Position numbers and translations under genes: made by a program. From Planctomycetota bacterium (GTDB lineage: Bacteria > Planctomycetota > UBA11346), in contig JBBQSO010000019.1 in NCBI GenBank assembly GCA_038213805.1, positions 1,114 through 65,113 of the forward strand: a stretch of 64,000 nt of DNA. Reading direction: 5' to 3'. Positions 6,329 to 55,530 of this stretch are shown in pieces; the first letter of the stretch is position 1, and the number at the start of each line of letters is the position of its first letter. The notes below the pieces were generated by a model. The model ran no database searches and was not told the DNA's origin. It saw only the letters and a program-made list of their open reading frames with translations.

Positions 6329-6913
6329 GTGGCTGTGAGTCCAGGCGATGCCGAGCCATCTGACAGACGACTGCTTGAACGTTACTGCCGTCATGGCGAC
6401 GTCGGGGCCTTCGGCAGCCTGCTCGACCGGCACCAGGGCGACCTGCTGCGCTTCGCGCATTCCCTGCTCGGCGACGCGCATGCCGCCCAGGACGCCGTCC
6501 AGGAGGCGTTCTGCCGGCTGTGCCGCGAGGCGCACCGGCTGGGGCAGGGGGCCGCTGGCCAGGACTCACTGGGGGGTTGGCTGTGCACCGTCGTGCGCAA
6601 CGCCTGCATCGATGTCCTGCGCCGCCGGAGCTACGCGCCCATGACCACCATCGCCGAGCACCAGGAAGGCCAGGGCGCATCTCCCAGCGCTGCCGTCGCC
6701 GCCAGCGACGCCGGCGAATCGCTGTGGCGCGCGGTCGCCACCCTGCCGCCGCTCGAGCGCGCCGCGGTGGTGCTGCGCTACCGCGACGGTCTCAGCTACC
6801 AGGATATCGCCGTGCGCCTGGGCAAGACCGCGACGCACATCGGCGTGCTGCTCCACCAGGGACTCGGACGGCTGCGCCAGAGCGAACGCCTGCGCGCGGG
6901 GGTGATGCCATGA
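6329..6913 (+). CDS. ECF (sigma-70 family, group IV) RNA polymerase sigma factor
   Basis: 194 aa. Region 2 'DAVQEAFCRLCREAHRL...GWLCTVVRNACIDVLRRR' and region 4 'LPPLERAAVVLRYRDGLSYQDIAVRLGKTATHIGVLLHQGLGRLR'. Confidence 0.85.
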   Translation: MAVSPGDAEPSDRRLLERYCRHGDVGAFGSLLDRHQGDLLRFAHSLLGDAHAAQDAVQEAFCRLCREAHRLGQGAAGQDSLGGWLCTVVRNACIDVLRRRSYAPMTTIAEHQEGQGASPSAAVAASDAGESLWRAVATLPPLERAAVVLRYRDGLSYQDIAVRLGKTATHIGVLLHQGLGRLRQSERLRAGVMP

Positions 6914-17100: not shown

Positions 17101-20100
17101 CTGGCGCCAGCGCCTGCTGCTCGCTGCGGCGGCGCTGCTCACCGCCTGGGGCCTGCACACGTGGCAGATCGGCGCCGGCCCGCTGCTCGCCCTGGCCGAG
17201 GGGCTGCCGGTGGCGCTGCTGGTGCTGCCGCTGCTGCGCTGGCTGCTGCGCCTGGCGACCGCGCGGCGGCCACGCCTGCAGGTCGCGCTTTCGCTCCTGA
17301 TGGTCGCCGCCTGCTCCACGCACGGCGCCGCCGCCGACAGCGTGCTGATGGGCTACGACCACCTCGATGCTGCCGGCGTACCCATCGCCGTGCGCGTCGC
17401 CCTGACCCGTGACCAGCTCACCACGCTGTGGCAGCGCGCGCACGGCGAGACCGCCGCGCCCGCACCGGTATGCGTGCTGGCCACCGGCGCGGCGCGTTAT
17501 GCCCTCGACGCCGGCAGCACCGCAGTCGAGGTGCTGCTGACCATGCCGGTCGCGGTGCCCGGCGAGTCCTGGCAGGAGGTGCACCTCCCGCTCGGCACCG
17601 GCACGGTGCGCAGCGTGCGCGCCGAACGCCTCGGCCGCGTCCTCCCGCCCGCAGAGCTCGCGGCGCGCAGCGCGGGGGGCGTGCTGATCGTCGCCTGCCC
17701 CCCGCGCAGCCAGTTCCTGCTGAGCGTCGCTTTCGCGCTACCGCTGCACCCTGAGGCCGCGACCTCGTCCTTCGCACTGCCGGTGCTGCCCACGCACGGC
17801 GGCGAGGCGCGCCTACGCCTGCCCTCCGGGTGGACGCCTAGCTGCGCTGGCGGCACCGTCCGCGCGCCGGCCGGCAACGACGGCGAGTGGTTGCTCGACC
17901 TGCCCGTTGGCGTCCAGACCCTGGCCTGGCAGCTGCGCCGGACCGAGGCCGAAACCAGCCACGAACTGCACCGCACCCTCGACCAGACGCTGCGCGCCAG
18001 CCTCGCGCCGGGCCGCGTGGAATGGGACATCACCCTGCTGCTGGGCGCGCAGGGGGGCACGCTGCGCGAGGCGCGCCTGCATCTGCCGGCCGGCCTGGTC
18101 ATCACCACGGTCAGCGGCCCGGCGCTGGCCGCATGGCGGCAGGATGGTGCCGACTTGGAAATTTCCTGGAGCGAGCCGCGCACCGGCGCCATCGCCGTTC
18201 ACGCGCAGGGTCTGCAGCCGCGCAGCGCCGCACCCGGACACGCCCCCGCCGCGTGGTCATGGCCCGGCGCCGAACGCAACACCGGCCGCCTCGACCTGGT
18301 CCATGCCAGCGACGAACATTTTCTGCGCCCGGACCAGGCAGAGATCGAACGCGCCGAGCCGCGCCCCGGCGCCGCGCTCGCGGTGCGCTGGTCCGACCAT
18401 CCGAACGGTCTCGCCATCGCCTGGGAAGCCGCGGTCAACGAGTTGCGCGTGGTGCAGCAGGGCGCGCTGGTCGCGGGCCTCGACCGCCTGCGCGCCACCC
18501 TCATCACCACGCTCAGCGGACGCGGCTCATGCGACGCCCTCACCCTGCGCCTGCCCGCGCCCTGGCGTCTCACCGTGCTGCCCGCCGGCGTCACCGCGAC
18601 CTTCCCCGAGTCCGGCAACGGCCCGGCTGCCAACGCTGATCGCACCGTAACGCTGCGCACCGCCGAGCCGTGGCGCGCCGGCACCAGCGTCACCCTGCAG
18701 CTGGAAACCGAACGGGGCGGGCTCGGCGACACCTTCAGCGTCCCCGACGGGACTCCCACCGATCCCGCCCTGGTCCTCGATCGCCAGGAGTGGCTGTTCG
18801 GTGACGCGGGCGACCGCCGTCTGCGCCTCGAGGATGCCGGGCGCTTCACCCCGCTCTCCATCGAGGCGCTGGCCAGCGTGCTCGCCGCGCAAGGCGTCGC
18901 GCTGCGCCCGGGCGAATCCTGGCGCAGCGCCTGCGAGCGTCGCAGCGGCCCCGCGCCGCTGCTGTCGCTGCGCGCCGACAGCACGGTGGTGCAGGTCATC
19001 GCCAGCCATTACCTGGTCATCGGCCAGGAGCAGGTGCGCTGGTGGGCGCGCCTCGCCTGGCGCATCGACCAGGGCGCACTGCAGGAACTGCGCTGCACCC
19101 TGCCCACGGGCGCGCGCCTGGTGGCACTGCACGCCGCCGACCTCGGCTCCTGGCGCATGGAGGGGGCCGAGCTGATCGCAACCCTGGCCGCGCCGGCACG
19201 CCGCGCGGTCGCCCTCGACCTGTCGCTGGAAGTGCCGCTCGCCGACGCCGGCCACCTGATGGCCCTGGCCACGCCCGCCGGCCAGGCGCTCAGCGCGCAG
19301 ACCGTCGCGGTGGTCGAAGAGGACGAGCTCGGCCTGCTCCACCTCGACCCCGACGGCCTCGAGCCGATCGCCAGCGCCGAGCTCGCCGGCAACCTCCCCG
19401 ACGGCGTCGATGCCGCGCGCGTGCAGCAGCGTTGGCGCGCCGCGCGCCCGGGCTGGAGCCTGGGCATCGCGCGCGAGGCGGCCACCGCCAGCGGCGGCGC
19501 TGACGGCGTCGCCACCCTGGTCGACGTGCTCAGCGTCATCGCCCCCGACGGCGAACTGCGCTCACGCGCCACCTGGCACGTGCTCAACCGCACGCGCCAG
19601 GTCCTTGCCCTGCACGTGCCGTCCGGCCTTGCCCTGTGGGAAGCGCGCGTCGATGGCGCCGTGGTGCGGCCGCGCCTCGCCGACGCCACCGCGCGCGCCG
19701 GCGCCGCCGACGCCGGTCAGGAACTGCTGCTACCGGTGCGCACCCTGCGCCCCGGCGAGGCCACGCTGCGCATCGAGCTGACCTGGCGCCAGCAGGTCGC
19801 CGACACCGCGCGCTTCCGGCCCGGGGCGCCCCTGCTCGGCGAGCTGCGCATCATGCAGACGCTGTGGCGCTTCGTGCCACCGCCCGGACACGCGCTGACG
19901 CGCCGCGACGGCACCCTTGCCGAAATCCCCGCCACGCACGCCGCCGCACAGCGCGTACGCCGCGTCATTGAAGACCTCAAGCGCCTGCGCGGCGTGGGCA
20001 CGCTCAGCGACAGCGGCGTGCAACGCCTGCACGCGCAGCTCGAGGTCCTCGACCTCGAGCTCGACGACTATCTGGTCGACCTCAAGGGCCTGGGCGGCGA

Positions 20101-20632
20101 GGACGCCGACCTCAGCGCCGCGGCGGCGAGCGCGCGCACTCCCGAAGCGGCGGGCGAAGCCAAGGCCGCGATCGCCGACGTGGTCAGCAACCGGCGCGAC
20201 ATCCAGAGCGACCTGCAGCGCCTCGACGCACTCGCCGGCACGCGCGCCGGCCGGCGCAAGGCCCTCGGACTGTGGAATGGTGTGCAGACCTGGAACGGCC
20301 GGCAGGTGCTCGCTCCCGCCCAGCTCGCCGACTACCTGACGCGCCTCGACGACGGCGACCTGCCCTGGCAGTCCGCGCAGCCCCTGGCCGGCGGCGCGGC
20401 CCTCGGCGCAGGCGAACCGGCCCCCGGCCACCGCGCCAGCGCCACCGCCAGCCTGCTCGGCATCGACCTCATCCCGCCCACGGACGGCGAGGGGCTGGTG
20501 CTGCGCGGACAGGGCAGCGATCTGCAGGTGGAGTTGGCGCTGACGCGTGAGCCGGCGGCGCGCTGGCCGTGGTTGGCGCTGGTGGGTGGTGCGCTGCTGG
20601 CGGGCGCGACGCTGCTGGTGCGACGCCGCTGA
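14171..20632 (+). CDS. Giant exported or membrane-anchored protein of unknown function (2153 aa)
   Basis: GTG 14171 overlaps the upstream stop (GTGA). Signal peptide 'MNRAAHGLALLAALLLATNATLRA'. Central hydrophobic cluster at about aa 960-1040 and a C-terminal TM 'WPWLALVGGALLAGATLLVRRR'. Last gene of the sigma/anti-sigma operon. No recognisable domains by eye. Confidence 0.45.
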   Translation: MNRAAHGLALLAALLLATNATLRAEERPTQPLVLPMVELLRQLDPQREWQFVPLADYRALVDAAHHAADAAVSAPGGAWIEQATVSGELQGDRELRCTAELTVVSVAVSATRCPLFATAPASLGAVTIDGQPALYVLGAALELVVPAPGRHHVAIAWGTRLADGDERVHRGQLVLPLAAGADVHLRATTPGGFSGSGVIEESGASPGWRITGSRGGALALSWHPGRLSGSDSAVFGVEQAVQVAVVDGPSSFHWVARLAARRGSLPTSLDLVLPAGWTMGSPGPGVVALTGPGTAADPVHLTLDAQAREIACDGFIAAAAPVGLPLVQGAAYQGGTVTLSASSPLAYTLPGGWLATPATTEGGAVVRRFALAAPDAGMRVALRPAADGLTVASTASVAIGPTAHGARLTQVLTISGAGRPRFALPLQLPAGWQLTAFAATPPGAIAELAGSDDPGTLVPGASVTVLLTPRPTNESVTLTLTLSGDTTAVPVRLAAIPSAQRLSSRLVVLAAPGLEVGITAGGWRLAERAVAFPADRADQVRAELFCTGSTPPLALAVAPRRLAATAEAVCYLLPRGPDDTWARIDLRLQVQEGELTRLRLALPVAAGAHLHAEDALFTVTTLAGAVLLEARAPWRGEHLLRIEGPLAPGEAGRLPQLTLSAGAEGADAIAVPLRQITAVQAPTDLDLAIVPGRATLPLDGDELPAWSRPIPGALLAGAWRMPAGAAPGTLTLVQRALAAVPAGFIDRASARTQVSAGGVSTWLRLRLAAPGLAELPLGLPEGSTLLAATIDGQATAVRRHGHELVLPLPGRTQVGIVLLYALPALPDADGELVQPLPRLAGLPITTCSWQVAIDDRWRVIPVAAPDALPLTMLVDGSPLRPWFATWRTPGVGSDVPPPPGLGQQAGDDARQLVAADPAPAAPGEPTLILAGQLLAGERSGDGAVLRLRLADLERLRGADRTGWALAAMCGVALFAVGWRQRLLLAAAALLTAWGLHTWQIGAGPLLALAEGLPVALLVLPLLRWLLRLATARRPRLQVALSLLMVAACSTHGAAADSVLMGYDHLDAAGVPIAVRVALTRDQLTTLWQRAHGETAAPAPVCVLATGAARYALDAGSTAVEVLLTMPVAVPGESWQEVHLPLGTGTVRSVRAERLGRVLPPAELAARSAGGVLIVACPPRSQFLLSVAFALPLHPEAATSSFALPVLPTHGGEARLRLPSGWTPSCAGGTVRAPAGNDGEWLLDLPVGVQTLAWQLRRTEAETSHELHRTLDQTLRASLAPGRVEWDITLLLGAQGGTLREARLHLPAGLVITTVSGPALAAWRQDGADLEISWSEPRTGAIAVHAQGLQPRSAAPGHAPAAWSWPGAERNTGRLDLVHASDEHFLRPDQAEIERAEPRPGAALAVRWSDHPNGLAIAWEAAVNELRVVQQGALVAGLDRLRATLITTLSGRGSCDALTLRLPAPWRLTVLPAGVTATFPESGNGPAANADRTVTLRTAEPWRAGTSVTLQLETERGGLGDTFSVPDGTPTDPALVLDRQEWLFGDAGDRRLRLEDAGRFTPLSIEALASVLAAQGVALRPGESWRSACERRSGPAPLLSLRADSTVVQVIASHYLVIGQEQVRWWARLAWRIDQGALQELRCTLPTGARLVALHAADLGSWRMEGAELIATLAAPARRAVALDLSLEVPLADAGHLMALATPAGQALSAQTVAVVEEDELGLLHLDPDGLEPIASAELAGNLPDGVDAARVQQRWRAARPGWSLGIAREAATASGGADGVATLVDVLSVIAPDGELRSRATWHVLNRTRQVLALHVPSGLALWEARVDGAVVRPRLADATARAGAADAGQELLLPVRTLRPGEATLRIELTWRQQVADTARFRPGAPLLGELRIMQTLWRFVPPPGHALTRRDGTLAEIPATHAAAQRVRRVIEDLKRLRGVGTLSDSGVQRLHAQLEVLDLELDDYLVDLKGLGGEDADLSAAAASARTPEAAGEAKAAIADVVSNRRDIQSDLQRLDALAGTRAGRRKALGLWNGVQTWNGRQVLAPAQLADYLTRLDDGDLPWQSAQPLAGGAALGAGEPAPGHRASATASLLGIDLIPPTDGEGLVLRGQGSDLQVELALTREPAARWPWLALVGGALLAGATLLVRRR

Positions 20633-41188: not shown

Positions 41189-43147
41189 ATGTCCACGCCC
41201 ACGGTCCCCGCCTTTTCCGCGCCCTACGTCCCCAGCCGCTTCGCCTTCGCCAGGCGGGCGAGCCGCGCGGTGCGCGTCGGCTCCCTGGTCATCGGCGGCG
41301 GCGCGCCGGTGGTGGTACAGAGCATGTGCACCACGCCGACCCAGGACGTGGCCGCGACCGTGGCGCAGTGCATCAGCCTGGCCGAGGTCGGTTGCGAGCT
41401 GGTGCGCATCACCGCGCCCGGGGTCAAGGACGCGCAGGCCCTCAAGCACATCCGCAGCGGCTTCTCGGCGGCGGGCTTCGCGCACGTACCGCTGGTCGCC
41501 GACATCCATTTCATGCCCGCTGCCGCCATGGAGGCCATCGAGCACGTCGAGAAGGTGCGTGTCAACCCGGGCAACTTCGCCGACAAGAAGCGCTTCGCGG
41601 TCATGGAGTATAGCGACGCCGACTATCAGGCCGAGCTCGAGCGTGTCGCCGAGCGCTTCCTGCCGCTGGTGGCGCGTGCCAAGCAGCTCGGCCGCGCGCT
41701 GCGCATCGGCACCAATCACGGTTCGCTCTCCGACCGCATCATGAACCGCTTCGGCGACAGCCCGCGCGGCATGGTCGAGTCGGCGATGGAGTTCGTGACC
41801 ATCGCCGAGAGCGCGGGCTACAAGGACCTCATCATCTCGATGAAGTCCTCCAACCCCAAGGTCATGGTCGCGGCCTATCGCATGCTGTGCGCGCGCCTCG
41901 CAGACCACGGCGAAGCCTATCCGCTGCACCTGGGCGTGACCGAGGCCGGCGACGGCGAAGACGGCCGCACCAAGAGCGCGGCCGGCATCGGCGCGCTGCT
42001 CGCCGACGGCATCGGCGACACCATCCGGGTCAGCCTGACCGAGCCGCCCGAAGCCGAAATACCGGTGGCGCGCCGGTTGCTCGCCGCCTTCGCTCATGGC
42101 GCTGCGCCGGCGGCCGCGATCGCCACGGCATGGCCGGCCGAAAGCGTCGATCCCTACACCTACCGCCGGCGCGTCGCCGAGATCGTACGCGTTGGCGCCG
42201 ACGTACCGCTCGGCGGCGGATTGCTGCCGCGCGTGCTGGTTCCGGCCGGCGCGGCCCCGGCGCCCGGTCACGAGCCGGCGGCCGATGCGCTGGTCGCCGA
42301 CACCCAGCTGTGGTTCGCCCAGCCGCACAGCATCCCGGGCCTGCGCGGCTGCGCCGAGCACGGCGCGCCACCCGCCGCCACCCCGGCCGCCACCGGCCAA
42401 GTGCCGCTCATTCAGGTCACCGCCGGCACCGACGCCGTGCCGGTGCTGAGGCCCGGCACCCTGGTGCTGTTGCGCCTGGATGATCAGGATCCCGCTGGCG
42501 CGCTGCGAGCGACGCTGCCGCGACTGCCGGACGGCGCGGTGCTCGGCATCGCCGAGCCCGGCCTGCTCGGCGAGCTGCGCGCCTACCGGCTGCTTGCCGC
42601 AGTCATCGAAGAGCAGTTCGCCGCCGCCGAACGCGCCCGTCCGGGCAGCGGCCGTCGCCAACCGCTGGTCATCGCCCTGCCCTTCCAGCGCGACGAGCTG
42701 GCGCTGGCCGCCCTGGCCGGGGCGCTGCTCATCGACGGCATCGGTGACGCGCTCTACTTGCCGGCCGCAGCCGACCCGCGCCGCCAGGCCTACACCATTC
42801 TGCAGGCAGTGAAGGCGCGCATCACGCGCGCCGATTACGTCGCCTGCCCGTCGTGCGGACGCACGCTCTTCGACCTCATCGAGGTCACCGCGCACATCAA
42901 GGAGGTCACCAACCACCTCGACGGCGTGACCATCGCGATCATGGGCTGCATCGTGAACGGCCCGGGCGAGATGGCCGACGCCGACTTCGGGTTCGTCGGC
43001 TCCGGCCCGGGCAAGGTCGACCTCTACCGCGGCCGCGACAAGGTGCGCACCGGCATCGCCTTCGTCGGTGCCCGCGCCGAGCTGATCGGCTTGATCAAGG
43101 AAGCCGGCAAGTGGAAGGAGCCGGCGGAGAGCCCGATCACAGGATAA
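41189..43147 (+). CDS. ispG: 4-hydroxy-3-methylbut-2-en-1-yl diphosphate synthase, long form with inserted A* domain
   Basis: 'RVGSLVIGGGAPVVVQSMCTT', 'GCELVRIT', and the [4Fe-4S] ligands 'ACPSCGRT...GCIVNGPGE'. 652 aa, implying the insertion-domain form. Confidence 0.9.
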   Translation: MSTPTVPAFSAPYVPSRFAFARRASRAVRVGSLVIGGGAPVVVQSMCTTPTQDVAATVAQCISLAEVGCELVRITAPGVKDAQALKHIRSGFSAAGFAHVPLVADIHFMPAAAMEAIEHVEKVRVNPGNFADKKRFAVMEYSDADYQAELERVAERFLPLVARAKQLGRALRIGTNHGSLSDRIMNRFGDSPRGMVESAMEFVTIAESAGYKDLIISMKSSNPKVMVAAYRMLCARLADHGEAYPLHLGVTEAGDGEDGRTKSAAGIGALLADGIGDTIRVSLTEPPEAEIPVARRLLAAFAHGAAPAAAIATAWPAESVDPYTYRRRVAEIVRVGADVPLGGGLLPRVLVPAGAAPAPGHEPAADALVADTQLWFAQPHSIPGLRGCAEHGAPPAATPAATGQVPLIQVTAGTDAVPVLRPGTLVLLRLDDQDPAGALRATLPRLPDGAVLGIAEPGLLGELRAYRLLAAVIEEQFAAAERARPGSGRRQPLVIALPFQRDELALAALAGALLIDGIGDALYLPAAADPRRQAYTILQAVKARITRADYVACPSCGRTLFDLIEVTAHIKEVTNHLDGVTIAIMGCIVNGPGEMADADFGFVGSGPGKVDLYRGRDKVRTGIAFVGARAELIGLIKEAGKWKEPAESPITG

Positions 43148-43420: not shown

Positions 43421-44533
43421 ATGCGCGCCTTCATCATCATCATCATCTTCTTCATCGTCGCGGTCGGTGGTATGCTCGCACGGCTCGCCGCCGAGAGCGA
43501 TCCGCAGACTTTGGCGACCGGTGCCAAGGCTCCCGACTTCACTCTGCCCGGTGTGGACGGCAAGAACCACAGCCTGACCGATTACGCGTCGGCCAAGGTC
43601 CTGGTCGTGGTGTTCACCTCCAACCATTGCCCGACCGCCCAGGAATACGAAGAACGCCTCAAGGCCATCACCGCCGACTACCGGGGGAAGAGCGTGGCGC
43701 TGGTGGCGATCAACCCGAACAGCGAAAAGGCGCTGCGCCTCGACGAGCTCGGCTACACCGATCTCAACGACTCGCTGCCAGAGATGAAGCTGCGCGCCGA
43801 CTATCTGCACTTCAACTTCCCGTACCTCTACGACGGCGCGACCCAGGCGGTATCGCGGGCCTACGGACCGAGCTCGACGCCGCATGCCTTCGTCTTCGAT
43901 GCCGCGCGGATCCTGCGCTACGAAGGGCGCATCGACGACAACGAGCGCGAGGCGGTGGTCAAGATCAAGGACCTGCGCGAGGCCATCGATGCGGTCCTCG
44001 CCGGCACGCCGGTGGCGACGCCGCACACGCCGTCGCTGGGCTGCTCGACCAAGTGGCTCGATAAACAGGATGAGGCAAAGGCCTACCTTGCCGAAATCGA
44101 GAAGGAGCCGGTGACCCTCGCCCTGGCCGGCGACAAGACTCTGGCCGAGCTGATGGCGAACACGGGCGGCAAGCTGCGCCTGATAAACTGCTGGGGACTG
44201 ACCTGCGGCCCATGCGTGCGCGAGCTGCCGGAGCTGGTCGACATCGAGCGCTGGTACCGCGGCCGCGACTTCGAACTGGTGACGGTCTCGACCGACTTTC
44301 CCGAGGACCAGCCGAAGACGCTGGCCATGCTCCAGAAAGTCCATGCTTCGGGCCGCAACCTGCTCTTCGCCGAGGCTGACAAGTACAAGCTGCTCGCCGC
44401 GCTGGACAAGGAATGGGACGGGGCGCTACCCTACAGCGTGCTGATCGCGCCAGGCGGTAAGGTGCTGTACCGCCACACCGGCGCGGTCGATCCGCTGGCG
44501 CTGCGACGGGTGATCCTCAAGAATCTTAAGTGA
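43421..44533 (+). CDS. Exported/anchored protein with two thioredoxin-like (redoxin/TlpA-like) domains
   Basis: Domain 1 'VLVVVFTSNHCPTAQEY' (redoxin-like, single Cys). Domain 2 'LINCWGLTCGPCVRELPEL' (CGPC). N-terminal hydrophobic anchor with an (ATC)5 poly-Ile run. Confidence 0.65.
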   Translation: MRAFIIIIIFFIVAVGGMLARLAAESDPQTLATGAKAPDFTLPGVDGKNHSLTDYASAKVLVVVFTSNHCPTAQEYEERLKAITADYRGKSVALVAINPNSEKALRLDELGYTDLNDSLPEMKLRADYLHFNFPYLYDGATQAVSRAYGPSSTPHAFVFDAARILRYEGRIDDNEREAVVKIKDLREAIDAVLAGTPVATPHTPSLGCSTKWLDKQDEAKAYLAEIEKEPVTLALAGDKTLAELMANTGGKLRLINCWGLTCGPCVRELPELVDIERWYRGRDFELVTVSTDFPEDQPKTLAMLQKVHASGRNLLFAEADKYKLLAALDKEWDGALPYSVLIAPGGKVLYRHTGAVDPLALRRVILKNLK

Positions 44534-46798: not shown

Positions 46799-46962
46799 GC
46801 CAATCCTCAGGGTGAGGGGCCAAAATGGCGCCCGGGCCGGGCCAGACAAGCCCCGGGTGGGGCGCGTCGCCACAGGACCGTGCGGCGCACCACCCAGCCG
46901 CGTCTGCCCCGACTGGCTCTGGTATTGTGATTTGGGAACGGGGCAACACGATCGACCCACGC

Positions 46963-47817
46963 ATGTTGAAGCTCGAAGTCTTGAATACCGCCTTCAAGGG
47001 CAAGCAGTTCCGTTTCAAGGAAGGCCTTGTGGTCGGGAGCGCCGAGGGCTGCGCCATCCGCGCCCAGCACACCGGGATGCAGGCCGAGCACGCCCGCTTC
47101 TACACTGACAACAACCACTCGATGGTCGAGATCGCCTGCAAGGAGGCCCATCTCTACGTCAACGGCCGGGACGTCGTGCGCAGCGAGCTGCGCCACCAGG
47201 ATGAGATCACCATCGGCCCCCTGCGCCTGCGCGTGGTCGACGACTCGCGGGTCAGTTCGGGGGCGATGCAGCTCGACCAGCTGCTGAGCGAGATGGAGGG
47301 CCAGGAGGCCTCTGACACCCTCTACGACTTCGCCCGCGAAGATCTCTTCTACCTGTCCACCAAGGACCCGGCCCTGCGCACGCGGATCAACTTCGTGATC
47401 CCGAGCAAGGACAAGTTCATCGATCAGGCCCAGGTCTTCCTCGCCCGCCTGGTCAAGGGCGGCACCATGGACGAGCAGCAGGTCGACTCCTTCATGACCT
47501 GCGCCAAGGAACTGATCCTCAACGCCCACCGCCACGGCCACACCTACGATGAGAGCAAGCGCATCACCCTGCGCTTCCGCGACGCCGGCGACCGCATCTC
47601 GCTGACCATCGTTGATGAGGGCAAGGGCTTCGACCACCGCGGCCTGCTCGCCAAGGTCAACGAGAAGGACGCCGCCCAGGCGGCGCGCGAACGCTACCAG
47701 GCCGGTGGTTTCGGCGGCCTCGGTTTCAAGCTGATCACCAAGCTGGCCAAGGATCTGACCTATAACGAGTCGGGCAACCAGGTGACGTTCACGGTGATGA
47801 AGCAGCCGGCGGAGTGA
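46963..47817 (+). CDS. FHA domain fused to a GHKL/HATPase_c (RsbW/SpoIIAB-type anti-sigma serine-kinase-like) domain
   Basis: FHA '[56 protein letters not shown]...[10 protein letters not shown]'. ATPase '[11 protein letters not shown]...[13 protein letters not shown]...[15 protein letters not shown]' (N, G1, G2 boxes). No HisKA/DHp domain. Confidence 0.6.
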
Positions 47818-47829
47818 GCGGCGGGCCGG

Positions 47830-47986
47830 CTGATGCCAGCCTGGCTGATGGCTGATGGCTGATGGCTGATGGCCGGCCGCTGGTGGAATTCCGGGTGACA
47901 ACCAACTTCAGCACGGCCACTCACCGGCGCACAGCGCCGGTGAGTCAGCCATCAGCTATCAGCCATCAGCCATCAGCTATCAGCCG
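47830..47986. repeat. Heptamer-bounded element 3: (GCTGATG)x~5 - ~70-bp spacer with hairpin - (CAGCCAT/CAGCTAT)x~6
   Basis: Direct reading. Arms at 47830-47873 and 47947-47986. The spacer palindrome is caccggcgcacagcgccggtg. It begins 12 nt after the FHA-GHKL stop and lies ~45 nt upstream of tRNA-Leu. Confidence 0.85.
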
Positions 47987-48030: not shown

Positions 48031-48115
48031 GCGGGCATGGCGGAACTGGCAGACGCGCGGGATTTAGGTTCCCGTACCGCAAGGTGTGTGGGTTCGAGTC
48101 CCTCTGTCCGCACCA
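48031..48115 (+). tRNA. tRNA-Leu (anticodon UAG), type II with long variable arm
   Basis: Acceptor GCGGGCA/TGTCCGC, 3-bp D-stem, anticodon loop TTTAGGT, long variable arm, T-loop TTCGAGT, encoded CCA. There is one T:T mismatch in the T-stem. Confidence 0.7.
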
Positions 48116-48286
48116 GCGCCCACGATCCGGCCCGTCCGGGTCGTGGGCTTTCTCTACAGCTTGGATGCTTGCAGAGGGGCTGCGCGCGCCCAAGACGGTG
48201 ATCCCCGGCGCACGACCTCGCGTGCGCGGTGTCCGCCATGAGTGCGCACCGCGCGGCCGCTGCTCCCCTCCTCCGATGCACGATCC

Positions 48287-51200
48287 ATGATCCTCGCGGG
48301 CGCCCACCGACCCGATCTGCTGCGCGCCGAAACCCTCCCCGACCTGTTCGAGGCCAGCGCACGCGCGCACCCCGAGCATCCGGCGCTGATCGCCGGCCGG
48401 CGCACGCTCAGCTACGGCGCGCTCGACACCGCCGCCGGGCGCATCGCCCACCGCCTACTCGCCGCCGGCCACGCGTCGCCGGGGCGCATCATCGGGCTGT
48501 GGCTGCCACGCGGCGCCGACCTGCTCACCGCCCAGCTTGGCATCGCCAAAGCCGGCTGCGCGTGGCTGCCGTTCGCCGACGATGCCCCCGCGCAGCGCGT
48601 CGCCGAGTGCCTGCGCGACGCCGGCGCGGTGGCGCTGATCACCGATGCGGCGCTCGCCGCCAGTCTTCCCGCCGGTCTGGAGCCGGCACCGCTGGTGGTC
48701 GACGGGTTGCTCGCCGAGCTGCCGCCGGGCACCCTGCCGCTACGTCGCGAGGGCCTGGGCGGCGAGCATCCGGCCTACGTCATCTACACCTCAGGCTCGA
48801 CCGGCCGTCCCAAGGGCATCGTCGTGCCGCAGCGTGCGATCTGCCACTTCCTGCGCGCTGAAAACGCGCTGCTCGGCGTGACCAGGGATGACCGCGTCTA
48901 CCAGGGCTTCTCTGTGTCCTTTGACATGTCCTTCGAGGAGATATGGATCAGCTGGCTGGTCGGCGCCACGCTGTGGCTCGCGCCCAAGACGGTGACCACC
49001 GATCCCGACGCGCTGCTCGCGGCGCTCACCGGGCAGCGCATCACCGTGCTGCACGCGGTACCCTCGCTGGTCGCGCTGCTGCCGGCGCTGCCGGCGTGCC
49101 TGCGCCTGCTCAATCTCGGCGGCGAGGCCTGTCCGCAGGCGCTCGCCGACCGCCTCACGGTGCCGGGACGGCGCGTGTTCAACACCTATGGGCCGACCGA
49201 GGCGACGGTCAGCGCCACGTTCGCCGAGCTGCGCAACGGCGCGCCGGTGACGATCGGCGGCCCGTTGCCCAACTATGGTCTGGCGATCGTCGACGAGGCG
49301 CTGCAGCCGGTGCCGGCCGGCGCCCCGGGCGAGCTGTGCATCTTCGGTCCCGGCCTGGCGAGCGGCTACCTCGGTCGTCCCGACCTGACCGCCGAGCGCT
49401 ATCCGCAGGGGCCGTTCGCGGCCCTGCCCGGGATCGAGCGGCTCTATCGCACCGGCGACATGGTGCAGCTCGATGGCGAAGGCGCGCTGCGCTTTCTCGG
49501 ACGCAGCGATGACCAGCTCAAGGTGCGGGGCTTCCGCGTCGAACCGGGCGAGATCGAGGAGGCGCTTACCGCCCAGCCTGGCGTCGCCGCAGCCGCGGTG
49601 GTGATGCGCGCGGAAGCCGCAGGGGAGGGCCTGGTGGCGTTCCTGGTGGCGGCGGGCGCCGCGGACGCCACGCCGACGGATGCCACGGAGCGCGAGACCG
49701 CGCTACGCCGTACGCTCGCGGAGGCGCTGCCCGCCTACATGGTCCCGTCGCGCTTCGTGACCGTCGCCGCGTTGCCGCGCCTGCCTTCGGGCAAGGTCGA
49801 CCGCAAGGCACTGCGCGACCAGGTGCTGCCCGCCCTGCCGGCCGCGGCGGGCGGCGACAAGCCGCGCACCCTCGCAGAGGCGTCGCTGTTCGCCGCGCTC
49901 GCCCCGCTCTTCCCAGGGCGCGCGCTGCGCCGTGGTGATGATTTCTTCAGCGATCTGGGCGGCCATTCGCTGACCACGGCGCGCCTGGTCTCGGCACTGC
50001 GCGCGGACCACGGATTCCCGCAGGCGGCGGTGCGCGACATCTACCTGCACCGCCGCCTCGACAGCATCGCCGCCGCGCTCGAGGCCGCGGGTGGCCGGGT
50101 GCAGGCGAGTGCGCCCGGGCCGTCGGCCTGGGCCCGCGCCCACGCCTGCCGCCGCCAGCGCTGGGCCTGTGGACTGGTCCAGACCATGCTGCTGCCCATC
50201 CCGGTGTGCGTGCACCTCGCCACCTGGCTGGCGCCGTTCTTCGCCTACCACTACTTGACCGGAGACGAAGAGGACAGCGTCCAACTCGCAGCGCTGCTCG
50301 CGACGCTGGTGTTCCTCGCTGTCCAGGTGCTGTCGTTCGTGATCGCGGTGGCGGCGAAGTGGCTGGTGCTCGGGCGCCTGCGCCCGGGCCGCTACCCGCT
50401 GTGGGGCGTCACCTACTTGCGCTGGTGGTTCGGCGAGGTCATGGCGCACGCCGCGCCGGTCTACCTGCTGAACGGCACACCCCTGTATCGCATCTATCTG
50501 CGCCTGCTCGGCGCGCGCATCGGCCGCGACGTCGCGATCGCCGGGGTCGAGGTCGCCGCACCCGACCAGCTCGAGATCGGCGACAACGTCGCCATCGGCA
50601 CCGCGGTGAGCATCGCCAACGCGCGCGTCGAAGACGGCTTCCTGGTGGTCGGCCGCGTGGTCATCGGCGCCGGCGCCCTGGTCGACTCCTACGCGGTGCT
50701 GGAAGGCGATACCGCGGTCGGCGCCGGCGCCACCCTTGGCCAACTCTCGGCCCTGCGCGCCGGTGCCAAGGTCCCGGCGGGCGAGTGTTGGGAGGGCGCA
50801 CCCGCGCGCTACGTCGGTGCGGACGAGACCGGCGTGGAGCCGCAGTTCACCCCGTCCATGCCGCGCCGGATCTTCGAACTGGCCTTCTATCCACTCGCCT
50901 CGGCGGTGATCTCGGCGATCTTCTTCCTGCCGGTGTTCCCCGCCTTCATGGTCATCGACGCGATCGACGCGCGCTGGCTCGACACCTTTGACAGCGACAC
51001 CCACACCCTAATCGCGGCCGGGGTCTACCTGGTGCTCGCGCTACCGGCGGCGGCGGTGCTGGTGGTGATCACCCTGTTCGCGGCGGCCCTGCTGCGCCGC
51101 GCCGCCTGCCCGCGGCTTGAGCCTGGCTCGTGGCCGATCCACGGCGCGGTCTACTATGGCAAGTGGGTCGCCGCGCAGATCCAGGAGAGCAGCCTGCACC

Positions 51201-52342
51201 TGCTGCACGGCTTGTTCGCCACGATCTACGCACCCTGGTGGTTCCGCCTGCTCGGCGCGCGCATCGGCCGCAACACCGAGATCTCGACCGCCACCGGCGT
51301 CACCCCCGATCTGCTGGTGCTGGGCGACGACAGCTTCGTCGCCGACGGTGCGATGCTGGGCGACGAGCCGGTGCGTGGTGGCATCTTCACGCTTTCCGGA
51401 ACGCGCGTCGGCTCGCGCAGCTTCATCGGCAATGGCGCGTGCGTTCCGGACGGCGCCGATATCCCCAGCGACGTGCTTATCGGCGTGCAGACCCTCACCC
51501 CGGCCAACGCGCGCCTGGCCTCGGGCCAGACCTGGATGGGCAGCCCGCCGATGATCCTGCCGGCGCGCGAGGCGCCCCTCGACTTTCCCGCACACCTGAC
51601 CTTCCGTCCGTCGCCGGCGCGACGGCTGGCGCGAGGCAGCGTCGAGCTGCTGCGCATCGTCGTGCCGCTGGCGTTCATCATCGCCTTCGGCTACGTGGCG
51701 GTGCGCCTGATCATGCCCTATTTCGAAGAGGAGGAGTGGCTGGCGGGCGTGGTGGCGCTCGCGGTTGCCGGCTTCGCCTTCGGCGCCATCGCGCTGGTCG
51801 CCGTGCTGGCGGCGAAGTGGCTGCTGATCGGCCGCTACCGGCCGGGCTCGGCGCCGATGTGGACACTGTTCGTATGGCTCAGCGAGGCGGTGACCACGCT
51901 CTACGAGTCGCTGGCGGTGCCCAACTTCCTCGCCTTCCTGCGCGGCACGCCGCTGCTGCCCTGGGCGCTGCGCCTGTTCGGCACGCGCATCGGCCGCGGC
52001 GCCTGGTTGAACACCACCGACATCACCGAGTTCGACTGCGTCGAGATCGGTGCCGGCGCCGAACTCAACGACGACTGCGGCCCGCAGACCCACCTCTTCG
52101 AGGACCGCGTGATGAAGATCGGCCGGGTACGGATCGGCAACGGCGCGGTGATCGGCGTGCGCAGCACCATCCTCTATGACAGCGAGGTCGGAGCGCGCGT
52201 GCGGCTGGGCCCCCTCACCCTGGTGTCAAAAGGGGAGCGGCTGCCGGAAGGCACCGCCTGGGAAGGGTCGCCTGCGTCACCTGCGGAGGGTGCCGGTCCG
52301 GAATTCCGGAAGTCCGAAAGTCCGGATGTCGGACGGCTCTGA
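48287..52342 (+). CDS. Pls/PosA-family single-module non-ribosomal peptide synthetase (adenylation - thiolation - three tandem membrane-embedded condensation-like domains); putative homopoly(amino acid) synthetase
   Basis: A-domain motifs: 'LSYGALD', 'YVIYTSGSTGRPKG', 'FDMSFEEI', 'NTYGPTEATV', 'GELCIFGPGLASGYL', 'YRTGDMV', 'GRSDDQLKVRGFRVEPGEIE', 'LPAYMVPS', 'SGKVDRKAL'. PCP 'DFFSDLGGHSLTTARL'. There follow three repeats of a TM pair plus a ~200-aa hexapeptide-like soluble domain carrying 'LLGARIGR' motifs, which is the ε-poly-L-lysine-synthetase-type architecture. The start could also be 48242. The last ~15 codons are encoded by a family-A repeat. Confidence 0.75.
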   Translation: MILAGAHRPDLLRAETLPDLFEASARAHPEHPALIAGRRTLSYGALDTAAGRIAHRLLAAGHASPGRIIGLWLPRGADLLTAQLGIAKAGCAWLPFADDAPAQRVAECLRDAGAVALITDAALAASLPAGLEPAPLVVDGLLAELPPGTLPLRREGLGGEHPAYVIYTSGSTGRPKGIVVPQRAICHFLRAENALLGVTRDDRVYQGFSVSFDMSFEEIWISWLVGATLWLAPKTVTTDPDALLAALTGQRITVLHAVPSLVALLPALPACLRLLNLGGEACPQALADRLTVPGRRVFNTYGPTEATVSATFAELRNGAPVTIGGPLPNYGLAIVDEALQPVPAGAPGELCIFGPGLASGYLGRPDLTAERYPQGPFAALPGIERLYRTGDMVQLDGEGALRFLGRSDDQLKVRGFRVEPGEIEEALTAQPGVAAAAVVMRAEAAGEGLVAFLVAAGAADATPTDATERETALRRTLAEALPAYMVPSRFVTVAALPRLPSGKVDRKALRDQVLPALPAAAGGDKPRTLAEASLFAALAPLFPGRALRRGDDFFSDLGGHSLTTARLVSALRADHGFPQAAVRDIYLHRRLDSIAAALEAAGGRVQASAPGPSAWARAHACRRQRWACGLVQTMLLPIPVCVHLATWLAPFFAYHYLTGDEEDSVQLAALLATLVFLAVQVLSFVIAVAAKWLVLGRLRPGRYPLWGVTYLRWWFGEVMAHAAPVYLLNGTPLYRIYLRLLGARIGRDVAIAGVEVAAPDQLEIGDNVAIGTAVSIANARVEDGFLVVGRVVIGAGALVDSYAVLEGDTAVGAGATLGQLSALRAGAKVPAGECWEGAPARYVGADETGVEPQFTPSMPRRIFELAFYPLASAVISAIFFLPVFPAFMVIDAIDARWLDTFDSDTHTLIAAGVYLVLALPAAAVLVVITLFAAALLRRAACPRLEPGSWPIHGAVYYGKWVAAQIQESSLHLLHGLFATIYAPWWFRLLGARIGRNTEISTATGVTPDLLVLGDDSFVADGAMLGDEPVRGGIFTLSGTRVGSRSFIGNGACVPDGADIPSDVLIGVQTLTPANARLASGQTWMGSPPMILPAREAPLDFPAHLTFRPSPARRLARGSVELLRIVVPLAFIIAFGYVAVRLIMPYFEEEEWLAGVVALAVAGFAFGAIALVAVLAAKWLLIGRYRPGSAPMWTLFVWLSEAVTTLYESLAVPNFLAFLRGTPLLPWALRLFGTRIGRGAWLNTTDITEFDCVEIGAGAELNDDCGPQTHLFEDRVMKIGRVRIGNGAVIGVRSTILYDSEVGARVRLGPLTLVSKGERLPEGTAWEGSPASPAEGAGPEFRKSESPDVGRL

Positions 52343-52505: not shown

Positions 52506-53129
52506 TCACTCGTCGGCGAGCAGGTCCTCGACGGTCAGGTTGTTCTTCTCGAGATGGGTCGCACCCTCGATCGAGAGCGGGGTCCACGGGATGAGCTGGA
52601 GCCGGGTGCGGGGGATCGGCTCCTTGGTGTACTCGCACAGGCCGTAGGGCATCGGGTGGCTGATGTCGATCTTGCGCAGCGCGCGATCGATCTGCCAGAC
52701 CACGTCCTTCTCTTCACCGGCCACACCCAGGCTGAGATCCTGGAGGTCGGCGTCACTGCCGCGCTCGGCGATGTGGTTCGGGGTGGTGTGGCCGTCCTCG
52801 GCCTCCATCGCATCCTTGACCAGGCCGGCGATGTCGTCGGTGATCTCGGCCCGGCGCGAGAGCAGGATCTGCTTCCACTTCGACAGCTCGTCGGCGCCGA
52901 ATGGGGCCTTGAAGACCTCCTTCGCCTTGACCGCGACCTTGGCGACCGGCTTGCTCGCCTTGGTGGCGGCGCTGCTGCTACTGGCGGCGGGGGCGCTGAC
53001 CGTGCTGGCGGCCTTGGCCGTAGCGACGGCCTTGCCCGAGCTGGTGGCCTTGCCCTTGCTCTCCTTCGCGGATTCCTTCACGGATTCCTTCACGGATGCT
53101 TTGGCGGACTCTTTGGTGGACTTGGCCAT
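52506..53129 (-). CDS. DksA/TraR-family protein with a degenerate zinc finger and a Lys/Ala-rich histone-H1-like N-terminal tail
   Basis: C-terminus 'LCEYTKEPIPRTRLQLIPWTPLSIEG' aligns with the DksA 'CEECGEEIPEARLKAIPWARLCIDC' motif, with three of four Cys replaced. Coiled-coil 'DLQDLSLGVAGEEKDVVWQIDRALRKI'. N-terminus 'MAKSTKESAKASVKESVKESAKESKGKA...AKVAVKAKE'. Strong SD GGAGGAG. Confidence 0.55.
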   Translation of the reverse strand: MAKSTKESAKASVKESVKESAKESKGKATSSGKAVATAKAASTVSAPAASSSSAATKASKPVAKVAVKAKEVFKAPFGADELSKWKQILLSRRAEITDDIAGLVKDAMEAEDGHTTPNHIAERGSDADLQDLSLGVAGEEKDVVWQIDRALRKIDISHPMPYGLCEYTKEPIPRTRLQLIPWTPLSIEGATHLEKNNLTVEDLLADE

Positions 53130-53296
53130 TTTTCGATCTCCTCCCGAGCGAGGGCGCACACCATAAAGCGATGGATGGGTGTTCAAGCCTGAATCGGCCG
53201 ACCCTGTCCGAGCTTGGCCGCTCACCACAGACGAACCACCTCGGCAGCTGCGGCGGATGACGTAGACATGCTGATGGCACGGCGTAAGAGAGGGCG

Positions 53297-54394
53297 GTGA
53301 ATAACGCTGAAGTCATCGGTGGAGTGCCGTTGGTATCCGTCATCGGGACGCCCCGGACCATGGGCGAGCGCCTCGGGGCGCGACTCAAGCCGCGCCTTCA
53401 GGTGTTGTCCCAGTATCTCGCCGAGCAGCTCTGCACGCTGTCCGCGTCGAATGGGCAGGCGCTCAATCCCGAACGGCTGCGCGACCTCATCCGCCCAAGC
53501 ATCGCGGTCATCGCCCGCCACGAACCGTCGCTGTGGATGGAATTCGAGGCGATGAGCCAGGCCAGCGACGTGGCGGTCGAGGACCTGCTGGTCATTCACG
53601 GCTACAGCGACCTGCTCAGCTTCATGCAGTGCCAGCTGCCGCCGCGGCCCAGCACTTTCGTGTGCCTCGACTCCAGCCATACCGCGGATGGCAAACCGTG
53701 CATGGCCTTCGCCTGGTACCTCGATCCCGCGCTGCTGCCCTACCTGACGCTGATGCGCCGCATCCCCTCGCATGGACCCGCCACGCTCACCCTGACGCTG
53801 GCCGGCCTGCACCCGGTCGCCGGCCTGTCCGAGGCCGGGGTCGCGGTGGCCTGCAACGAGTTGCGCGTGCGCGACGGCGCCTGCGGGCATTTCACCAGCC
53901 ACCTGCTGTCGTCGATGCTCACCGCGCCCAGCCTGGAGGACGCGCTGCGCCGCGGCCTGGCCGCGCCGCGCCACGGCGGCGGCGCGGTGCACGGCCTGGC
54001 CGCGAACGGCGAGCGCTTCAGCCTCGAGCTGAGTGGCCAACAGGCCACGCGCCTGGCCGATCCGCTGGCAGCGGCGCCGCGCGTGCACACCAACCACCCG
54101 CTCGACGAGCAGATCATCCCCACCGTGGTGCTGGTGGAGGCGACCAGCAAGAGCCGCCTGGAAGACACCGCCAACCTCGCCGTCGGCAGCACCGGCACCA
54201 CGCCGCATACCATCGGCGAGTGGTTCGGTCTGACCCGTGAGCCGGGCAGCACGCGCATCGCGCTGGCGCGCACCGATGCCGAGGGCGAGCACAGCACCGA
54301 CGCGGTCGTGGTGATCGTGCTCTGCCCGGGGGCGGGCGAGATCCACCTGCGTCGCAGCGGCATGCCCGGGCGCATGGAGACCATCAGGCTGTGA
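53297..54394 (+). CDS. Hypothetical protein, possibly Ntn-hydrolase/C45-like
   Basis: 365 aa. 'FVCLDSSHTADGKPCMAFAWYLDP' weakly resembles the C45 acyltransferase/hydrolase nucleophile region. Otherwise unassigned. Confidence 0.3.
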   Translation: MNNAEVIGGVPLVSVIGTPRTMGERLGARLKPRLQVLSQYLAEQLCTLSASNGQALNPERLRDLIRPSIAVIARHEPSLWMEFEAMSQASDVAVEDLLVIHGYSDLLSFMQCQLPPRPSTFVCLDSSHTADGKPCMAFAWYLDPALLPYLTLMRRIPSHGPATLTLTLAGLHPVAGLSEAGVAVACNELRVRDGACGHFTSHLLSSMLTAPSLEDALRRGLAAPRHGGGAVHGLAANGERFSLELSGQQATRLADPLAAAPRVHTNHPLDEQIIPTVVLVEATSKSRLEDTANLAVGSTGTTPHTIGEWFGLTREPGSTRIALARTDAEGEHSTDAVVVIVLCPGAGEIHLRRSGMPGRMETIRL

Positions 54395-54396
54395 CT

Positions 54397-54438
54397 GGGG
54401 GTCCGGAAGTTCCGGAGTCCGGAAGTCCGGAAGTCGGG
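54397..54438. repeat. Family A repeat fragment (GTCCGGAAGTTCCGGAGTCCGGAAGTCCGGAAGTCGGGAC)
   Basis: Direct reading. A single arm without an obvious inverted partner. Lies in the 5' region of the lpxK ORF. Confidence 0.7.
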
Positions 54439-54474
54439 ACGGGCGAGGCGCGGCAGTGGACCACGCCGCCGCTG

Positions 54475-55530
54475 GTGCGCGTACGTGGACGCTGGAAGGA
54501 GGACCTGCCCGGTACTCCATGGCGCTGGCTGCTGCTGCCGGCGTGGTGCGCCTACCGACCCGCGGTGGCGCTGCGCGGCCTGGCCTACGACCTCGGTTGG
54601 CGACCAGTGCTGCGCCTGGGTGTGCCAGTTATCTCGATCGGCAATCTGACCGCAGGCGGCACCGGCAAGACCCCGCTCGCGCGCCTGGTCGCCGAGACCT
54701 GCCGCGCCGCCGGCCATGCGCCTGCGGTGCTGGCACGCGGCTACCGCGCCGGCGCGGATGGGCGCAACGAGGAGGCCGAGCTGATGGGCGGCATCCCAGT
54801 GGAGTGCGACCCCGACCGCGTCAGCGGCGGCCAGCGCGCGCTCAAGGCCGGCGCCACCTGCCTGATCCTGGACGACGGTTTCCAGCATCGTCGGCTGCAC
54901 CGCGACCTCGACCTGGTGGTGATCGACGCGACCCGCCCGTGGGGCGGCGGCGTGCTGCCTCTCGGCTATGCGCGCGAAGGCCGCGCCGGGCTGGCGCGCG
55001 TGCAGGCCTTCGCGCTGACGCGCCTGCACCTGGTGCCGGCTGCCGAGCGCTTGGCGGTGGAACGCACGCTTGCCACCTTCAACCGGCCGGTGCTGCGCAT
55101 CGCCGATGCTGAGGCCTGCCTCAGCGCGCTGATCGGTGGCGGCATGGCGCCGCCCGCCGCGCTCGCCGGGCAGCCGGTGCTGCTCGCCAGCGGCCTGGGC
55201 AACCCACTCGGCTTCGAGCGCAGCGCGGCCGCGCACGGCTGGACGGTACGCGCCAGCGTACGCTTCCCCGACCACTGGAGCTTCGACGCCGCCGATGCGC
55301 GCCGGCTCGCGGCCCGCGCCGCCGCTGCCGGCGCGACCCTGGTGGTGACGCGCAAGGACGCGGTGAAGCTCGCCCCGTTGTGGTCCGCCGCCTGCGTCGC
55401 TGCGGGGGTCGCGCCCCCTGCATTCGCCCTCGACGTACGCGCTGCCGTGGTCCCGGCAGATCGCCCCACTCTCGCCGCCCTGGTCACGTCCGCCCTCGCT
55501 GCGGTGCCTCCACCCTCGGTGCCACGCTGA
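54475..55530 (+). CDS. lpxK: Tetraacyldisaccharide 4'-kinase
   Basis: 'VPVISIGNLTAGGTGKTPLARLV' is the canonical LpxK P-loop, and 'LILDDGFQHRRL' is present. The ORF runs from GTG 54391 (GTGA overlap) but its first ~28 codons are the repeat, so GTG 54475 is proposed; the start is uncertain. Confidence 0.75.
   Translation: MRVRGRWKEDLPGTPWRWLLLPAWCAYRPAVALRGLAYDLGWRPVLRLGVPVISIGNLTAGGTGKTPLARLVAETCRAAGHAPAVLARGYRAGADGRNEEAELMGGIPVECDPDRVSGGQRALKAGATCLILDDGFQHRRLHRDLDLVVIDATRPWGGGVLPLGYAREGRAGLARVQAFALTRLHLVPAAERLAVERTLATFNRPVLRIADAEACLSALIGGGMAPPAALAGQPVLLASGLGNPLGFERSAAAHGWTVRASVRFPDHWSFDAADARRLAARAAAAGATLVVTRKDAVKLAPLWSAACVAAGVAPPAFALDVRAAVVPADRPTLAALVTSALAAVPPPSVPR

Follow-up and report, generated by a model that had tools for sequence, protein, structure and literature searches.

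The window, a stretch of 64,000 nucleotides from a Planctomycetota bacterium (assembly GCA_038213805.1, contig JBBQSO010000019.1), carries on its plus strand a gene for a Pls/PosA-family single-module nonribosomal peptide synthetase (NRPS), predicted to synthesise delta-poly-L-ornithine (48287..52342, stop codon included). The open reading frame (ORF) is uninterrupted and codes for 1351 amino acids. While the mechanically called ORF opens at a GTG at 48242, the alternative ATG at 48287 is likely to be the start, since the closest homologue, from locus L001 of another Planctomycetota genome, begins MILAGAHRPELL there and PosA aligns from residue 2. As described in the initial annotation, the gene lies between a tRNA-Leu(TAG) gene (48031-48115) and a convergent DksA-like gene on the minus strand (52506-53228). 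Directly 3' of the tRNA, at 48118..48148 on the plus strand, is a terminator-like hairpin of 13 pairs, 10 of them G-C, followed by TTTCTCT, the sequence of which is kept in L001. This hairpin would separate the synthetase gene from upstream transcription and, together with the convergent gene downstream, points to a monocistronic unit. The scan for a sigma-70-like promoter found none, a result that is uninformative for Planctomycetota, and an Rfam scan returned nothing besides two tRNAs.

Domain organisation of the synthetase

Pfam places in the protein a single adenylation (A) domain, composed of an N-terminal core (AMP-binding, residues 21-362, 48347..49372) and a C-terminal subdomain (AMP-binding_C, residues 422-503, 49550..49795), a single peptidyl carrier or thiolation domain (PCP; PP-binding, residues 551-598, 49937..50080) and a Hexapep match near the C-terminus (residues 1281-1313), with no match to a Condensation or Thioesterase domain at E<=0.01. 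The region after the PCP matches NCBIfam TIGR02353 end to end (residues 631-1330 against positions 2-695 of the 695 in the profile), with 718.9 bits for a curated cutoff of 423.1. This profile is the one that NCBI names "Pls/PosA family non-ribosomal peptide synthetase", and it corresponds to the antiSMASH type NAPAA. The proposal in the initial annotation of a single-module NRPS of the Pls/PosA type is borne out by these matches, and on its sequence the protein can be assigned to the membrane-bound single-module NRPSs of this family. Such an architecture could not arise by chance.

The initial annotation had held that disrupted core motifs in the A domain would speak against its proposal. Motifs A3, A4, A5, A6, A7, A8 and A10 were all found intact: A3 (YTSGSTGRPKG, 48785-48817), A4 (FDMSFEE, 48920-48940) and A5 (NTYGPTE, 49181-49201) lie, like A6, inside the AMP-binding core, A7 (YRTGD, 49445-49459) follows just downstream of it, and A10 (PSGKVDRK, 49784-49807) holds the lysine of the specificity code, K503. 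The carrier motif DLGGHSL is also intact, with the phosphopantetheine site at Ser561 (codon 49967-49969), and GGHS is present in 121 out of 121 homologues.

The C-terminal region, of about 730 residues, is built of three units, each a pair of transmembrane helices followed by a soluble domain with a left-handed beta-helix. Six transmembrane segments were recognised by Kyte-Doolittle hydropathy. The first pair (~627-653 and 665-695, 50165..50371) encloses the acidic loop YHYLTGDEEDS and precedes the soluble domain C1 (~696-857, beta-helix ~754-845, 50372..50857). The second pair (~862-893 and 907-938, 50870..51100), with the acidic loop DARWLDTFDSDTH, precedes C2 (~941-1109, beta-helix ~1010-1091, 51107..51613), which carries the family-wide conserved residues E998, D1020 and N1049. 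The third pair (~1118-1146 and 1152-1182, 51638..51832), with the loop EEEEW, precedes C3 (~1182-1335, beta-helix ~1252-1332, 51830..52291), where the Hexapep match is located. The units are homologous to each other according to internal BLASTP comparisons, U1 and U3 most clearly (35% identity, E 7.5e-27), followed by U1 and U2 (26%, E 2e-16) and U2 and U3 (26%, E 6e-11). An AlphaFold2 model of residues 600-1351 (pLDDT 86, pTM 0.88) likewise contains three long helix pairs, each with a beta-helix after it. Hydropathy, mutual homology and the model therefore agree on the three tandem soluble domains with transmembrane helix pairs described in the initial annotation. The loops between the helices are acidic (net charge -4, -3 and -4) while the flanks of the pairs are basic, so that by the positive-inside rule the A domain, the PCP and C1-C3 would all be on the cytoplasmic side; it is this orientation that we infer, the architecture being observed directly.

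When compared with Foldseek, the soluble units resemble the hexapeptide-repeat maltose, galactoside and serine O-acetyltransferases (probability 1.0, target-normalised TM-score ~0.5), and by sequence they match gamma-carbonic-anhydrase/hexapeptide proteins. No solved structure of the whole C-terminal domain was found by sequence or by fold, only single units of the hexapeptide acyltransferase or gamma-carbonic-anhydrase kind. The fold is common to C1, C2 and C3 and to the maltose/galactoside O-acetyltransferases, serine acetyltransferase and LpxA/LpxD, at only 12-20% sequence identity. In contrast to these separate enzymes, the three units of the synthetase are fused and alternate with transmembrane hairpins, and the acyl donor would be an aminoacyl-S-carrier rather than an acyl-CoA or acyl-ACP. 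Hexapeptide acyltransferases are trimers, and a single such trimer is plausibly imitated by the three fused units, in line with the modelling of PosA. The authors of the PosA study, for whom no structural information on this domain existed, likewise considered it probable that its three segments come together as a single pseudo-threefold domain similar to the trimeric sugar-nucleotide acyltransferases (PMC10522769).

Substrate prediction from the adenylation domain

Extraction of the specificity code of the A domain had been proposed in the initial annotation. The code was read from a HMMER alignment to PosA (PDB ID: 8G95) and a MAFFT alignment of 121 sequences, and consists of D213, M214, E217, H256, N276, G278, T300, V308, S309 and K503 (DMEHNGTVSK). 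It is identical at 10 out of 10 positions to the code (D M E H N G T V S K) of PosA, the characterised Acinetobacter baumannii enzyme that makes delta-poly-L-ornithine, compared with 6 out of 10 for Pls, the lysine enzyme (DAESIGTVVK), and fewer for the diaminobutyrate (Dab; DFECLSAVTK, or DFECLSCVSK for D-Dab), diaminopropionate (Dap; DFEYVGTVTK) and beta-lysine (DGESVSVVNK) codes, all of them tied to experiments (PMC10522769, including its Suppl. Table 2). Among solved structures, the A-core is matched best by the adenylation domain of the same A. baumannii PosA (8G95-8G98, E 5.6e-129; PMC10522769), well ahead of Pls (7WEW, E 1.5e-64); closeness to PosA over other specificities was assessed on the A-core for Pls and by code for the Dap and Dab enzymes. 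The PosA residues D217, M218, E221, T304 and S313 touch the substrate (PMC10522769), and in the HMMER alignment all five of these ornithine contacts are identical in the window synthetase. Given that the code is identical to that of PosA and that the ornithine-contacting residues are all kept, L-ornithine is the predicted substrate. This narrows the identity of the polymer, which had been left as unknown in the initial annotation. PosA itself, listed there as a Dap enzyme, is the delta-poly-L-ornithine synthetase; the enzymes that annotation had in mind, those for Dap and Dab, are known as PDAP and PDAB synthetases and come from Streptomyces and Streptoalloteichus (PMC10522769).

The second position of the code is of particular relevance. 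It is Ala in the Lys enzymes, Phe in the Dap and Dab enzymes and Gly in the beta-Lys enzymes, while Met at this position has been tied to the preference of PosA for Orn over Lys: the PosA A domain prefers L-ornithine to L-lysine by more than 160-fold, and its M218A variant uses lysine about 10-fold more (PMC10522769). The residue in the window synthetase is Met214, i.e. neither the Lys-type Ala nor the PDAP/PDAB-type Phe. The 120 database proteins nearest to the window synthetase, as well as 80 genomic loci, all have this code or single conservative variants of it. Two other specificities were considered and rejected. Gly was suggested by a match to module 2 of LgrA, but the code is not of the Gly type and PosA outranks LgrA when the A-core is taken alone. 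Dab was suggested by a likeness to a Pseudomonas Dab code, and was dropped because the published PosA code is identical to the one found here.

The other known members of the family provide the context for these comparisons. Pls from Streptomyces albulus (BAG68864.1; 7WEW), the founding member, is built in the same way, its C-terminal domain also being of the TIGR02353 type, and its code shares D, E, G, T, V and K with that of the window synthetase; it differs in having Ala at code position 2, lysine as substrate and longer polymers as product. Between PosA-type enzymes and Pls, the identity of the C-terminal domains is only ~20% (PMC10522769). The PDAP, PDAB and beta-lysine synthetases (EXU85975.1, BCD58482.1, WP_083959783.1 and WP_234995776.1, from Streptomyces and Streptoalloteichus) also belong to the family and share its architecture, while their codes have Phe or Gly at position 2 and differ at positions 4-9 too. 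The similarity to PosA (ATY43264.1) is the most extensive, since the order of domains is the same (A, PCP, six transmembrane helices and three beta-helix domains), the code and the ornithine-contacting residues are identical, and both are single-gene loci. The host of PosA belongs to the Gammaproteobacteria, as opposed to the Planctomycetota for the window, and the window protein carries a short extra C-terminal tail.

A different polymer, i.e. epsilon-poly-L-lysine, poly-Dab, poly-Dap, poly-beta-lysine or an arginine-derived one, would be made by a synthetase of the same family, which does hold these specificities and has numerous code variants among 70 diverse representatives, and the modest adenylation of Lys and weak adenylation of Dab by the A domain of PosA itself could be seen as pointing the same way. 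We nevertheless regard this as unlikely considering the agreement of the whole code with PosA, the Met at position 2 and an A-core far nearer to PosA than to Pls. Moreover, full-length PosA made delta-linked ornithine 7-12-mers in vitro, and no lysine polymer (PMC10522769). It is thus quite probable, judging from the sequence, that the window gene encodes a PosA-type synthetase which joins ornithine into short cationic chains. The broader suggestion of the initial annotation, namely that the gene is a candidate for making a cationic homopoly(amino acid), has passed every sequence-level test.

The C-terminal domain and the predicted product

No experimentally defined catalytic residues of Pls C1-C3, nor a cryo-EM structure, were found in the accessible literature, and family-wide conservation was used in their place. 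In a set of 70 full-length representatives with Lys-, Orn-, beta-Lys- and Dap/Dab-type as well as unassigned codes, 44 C-terminal columns are conserved at >=93%, and the window synthetase keeps 43 of them, including QTHLFEDR..K. The sole exception is position 1314 (M to S), which is also variable within the PosA clade. The loss of catalytic residues from the C-terminal domains, named in the initial annotation as a possible argument against its proposal, is therefore not what is seen in these columns.

Among the histidines of the C-terminal domain, H1269 alone reaches the level of >=93% conservation. It is part of the motif Q-T-H-L-F-E-D-R-x-x-K in C3 (GPQTHLFEDR, 52079..52108), where Q1267, E1272, D1273, R1274 and K1277 are the conserved residues around it. 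By analogy with the hexapeptide acyltransferases, H1269 is the best candidate for a general base, a suggestion that would apply to the family as a whole. The motif offers a concrete target for mutagenesis throughout the family, rather than one special to this locus.

In the mechanism which we propose, the A domain would activate L-ornithine with ATP and attach it through a thioester bond to the phosphopantetheine arm carried by Ser561, as suggested by the identity of the code with that of PosA and the conservation of every ornithine-contacting residue. The PCP would then hand ornithyl-S-PCP to the C-terminal domain, pictured as a pseudo-threefold set of three hexapeptide acyltransferase-like units on the cytoplasmic face of a six-helix bundle. 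There, by analogy with PosA and Pls, a delta amine, belonging either to free ornithine or to the growing chain, would attack the thioester, possibly with H1269 of C3 acting as the general base. Repeated cycles would lead, as for PosA, to a short isopeptide-linked cationic oligomer, delta-poly-L-ornithine, which would presumably be released outward at the membrane. Ornithine occurs as a normal intermediate when arginine is made, and the phosphopantetheinyl transferase for the synthetase must be encoded elsewhere. The gene can be pictured as a stand-alone monocistronic unit that would need no dedicated partner genes. posA has also been reported as a single-gene locus (PMC10522769).

Several points weigh against this reading. 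The full-length identity to PosA is only ~47-48% (47-52% by region), although these are lower bounds since the PosA sequence was taken from a supplement damaged by optical character recognition (1316 of 1332 residues). The isolated PosA A domain also shows the modest Lys and weak Dab activity mentioned above (PMC10522769). The ratio of nonsynonymous to synonymous substitution rates (dN/dS) of the gene is two to four times that of its housekeeping neighbours (values below), i.e. the constraint is weaker, as is usual for accessory genes. Lastly, an A-domain code predicts activation and not a polymer, since it is the C-terminal domain that determines how long the chain becomes, how it is linked and what the acceptor is.

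This last point leads to the alternative that ornithine is activated but that the C-terminal domain transfers it, or short oligomers of it, to an acceptor in the membrane or envelope, or that the length or linkage of its product is very different. A membrane-embedded set of acyltransferase-like beta-helices would be compatible with such a role, and the Planctomycetota proteins form a clade of their own, their identity to all the others being ~55%. For PosA too, the in vivo evidence leaves room for other products and roles: a knockout only slightly increased biofilm, and the antifungal activity reported, at 0.15-0.30 g/L, was that of a synthetic ornithine 12-mer (PMC10522769). On the other hand, the C-terminal domain matches the family profile from end to end and keeps nearly all of the family-invariant residues, no conserved gene that could supply an acceptor is found nearby, and the family members characterised so far are all producers of isopeptide homopolymers (PMC10522769). 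We therefore consider a different product improbable, and an ornithine homopolymer remains the preferred reading.

Distribution and inheritance of the gene

The locus was searched for in 185,579 species-representative genomes, with at least 585 confirmed matches. The closest loci among the matches listed belong to three Planctomycetota metagenome-assembled genomes (MAGs): L001 with 84% amino acid identity, L002 with 65%, and L005, which has 96% identity over the C-terminal half. The next matches listed are hundreds of proteins at 51-56% identity in Beta- and Gammaproteobacteria, Verrucomicrobiota and others. The C-terminal 730 residues alone matched 697 clusters (50% identity) at E<=1e-30 among 1.84 billion cluster representatives. 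The window synthetase is in this respect an ordinary further member of a known and very widespread family. With it, the PosA or ornithine-type branch among the synthetases of cationic homopoly(amino acids) reaches into the Planctomycetota, which is of modest value. Standard annotation would name the gene already (as "Pls/PosA family non-ribosomal peptide synthetase" in PGAP and as NAPAA in antiSMASH), so that no new question is opened by it. In the table of the PosA study, the only planctomycetal entry is a Dap-type enzyme from Singulisphaera (PMC10522769 Suppl. Table 2), and an NAPAA cluster has been reported in Singulisphaera acidiphila (PMC12402505).

In a neighbor-joining tree (midpoint-rooted, without support values or an outgroup), the window protein falls into a single clade with those from L001 and L002, and the next enclosing group consists mostly of Verrucomicrobiota loci. 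This topology is the pattern that vertical descent within the Planctomycetes-Verrucomicrobia-Chlamydiae (PVC) group would give. The PosA-type genes from three MAGs labelled "uncultured Bifidobacteriaceae bacterium" (L015, L046 and L062, from binchicken co-assemblies) also cluster with the Verrucomicrobiota in this tree, and those titles may be mislabelled.

The window is collinear with L001 over ispG, leuD, leuC, a gene with FHA and HATPase domains, tRNA-Leu, the synthetase gene, the DksA-like gene, a C45-family gene, lpxK and pyrF, with 92-97% protein identity for the neighbours, and the segment from the synthetase gene to the C45 gene is also found in L005. The context in L002 is unrelated. 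None of the neighbours of the synthetase in the window recurs beside it in the 77 more distant loci; neither there nor in L002, i.e. outside the two closest MAGs, was a conserved partner found, whether a degrading enzyme, an exporter, the C45 acyltransferase or the DksA-like gene. When compared with L001, the synthetase gene has a dN/dS of 0.27 (dS 0.35), while the C45 gene, leuD, ispG and pyrF have values of 0.06-0.15 (dS 0.19-0.33). A ratio of this size indicates that the synthetase gene is under purifying selection.

The initial annotation considered the gene unexpected in its genomic background, and its location directly downstream of a tRNA gene, a G+C content of ~0.72 compared with 0.66-0.68 in the flanks (host ~0.69) and a dN/dS above that of its neighbours could indeed suggest a recently acquired island gene, foreign to the genome. 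Against this, the order of genes is the same in related MAGs, the dS is similar to that of the neighbours, the protein groups with its planctomycetal homologues beside the Verrucomicrobiota copies, the family is known in Planctomycetes, and no integrase or direct repeats were noticed. Recent acquisition thus seems slightly less probable still than either a different polymer or a different product. Since it shares its gene order with related MAGs and its dS with its neighbours, the gene appears to be a stable resident, inherited vertically within its Planctomycetota lineage, and the unexpectedness is not borne out. The proximity to a tRNA and the slightly raised G+C may leave room for an ancient insertion, as opposed to a recent one.

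A decaying or inactive relic is the least probable of the explanations considered, and to be regarded as very improbable. It would account for the raised dN/dS and for the one changed family-conserved residue (M1314 to S), but the dN/dS is well below 1, the frame is open over all 1351 codons, position 1314 varies in the PosA clade too, and the catalytic motifs of the A domain, the carrier serine and the other conserved C-terminal residues are intact.

A further possibility is that the PosA-type gene is an old, vertically inherited trait of the PVC group, whose members have unusual envelopes, its product being an envelope-associated or physiological ornithine oligomer, of other length or attached to an acceptor, instead of a secreted antimicrobial. 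The support for this is the tree topology, with the Planctomycetota proteins beside those of Verrucomicrobiota, and the fixed place of the gene among housekeeping genes, and we hold it to be improbable.

Other features of the window

The DksA-like gene downstream of the synthetase is only weakly DksA-like (NCBIfam ~35 bits for cutoffs of 105-115, and a sub-threshold zinc finger in Pfam). Its product has an N-terminal extension of ~110 residues which is poorly conserved compared with L001 and L005, the 98% identity being confined to residues 110-240. The C45-family autoproteolytic acyltransferase/hydrolase gene next to it overlaps the start of lpxK by 4 bases (54391-54394; both within 53297-55530), which suggests co-transcription with this lipid A gene, so that the C45 gene looks like part of an lpxK operon. 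It is 96.7% identical to its L001 counterpart (dN/dS 0.06), and was not found beside posA homologues in other phyla.

Upstream of tRNA-Leu, the gene at 46825-47817 codes for an FHA domain and an RsbW-like HATPase (anti-sigma-factor-kinase type). Its ORF runs into that of leuC, which lies on the opposite strand, at the 5' end of the latter, which indicates that one of the mechanically assigned start codons is probably too far upstream. The spacer between this gene and tRNA-Leu contains two heptamer arrays, one the reverse complement of the other (TGGCTGA x4.6 at 47842-47873 and TCAGCCA x5.9 at 47945-47985), flanking a short G+C-rich hairpin (~47918-47946). A long hairpin with imperfect pairing could be formed by the whole element (47842-47985). 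In L001, the corresponding spacer (7504-7735) has a different long inverted repeat, and the sequence of the heptamer element is thus not conserved.

Several plus-strand ORFs of very large size and very high G+C content (~0.75) follow one another at 6520-20632. The first (6520-10752) has VWA and YfbK_C domains, while the following two (~10750-14174 and 14171-20632, the latter of 2153 residues) are rich in Ala, Leu, Gly and Arg and without a Pfam match, and have signal-peptide-like N-termini and C-terminal transmembrane segments. This series of ORFs may be a planctomycetal giant-gene surface operon or an aerotolerance-like one. Between ispG and leuD, a gene of 370 residues (43421-44533) consists of two thioredoxin-like halves of the ResA/TlpA type; it is missing from the otherwise collinear L001, which suggests a small lineage-specific insertion or deletion. 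The IspG protein (41189-43147) is of the long form (~650 residues) with an inserted domain, and is best matched by the ~610-residue models PRK02048 and PRK00694, with scores below their cutoffs.

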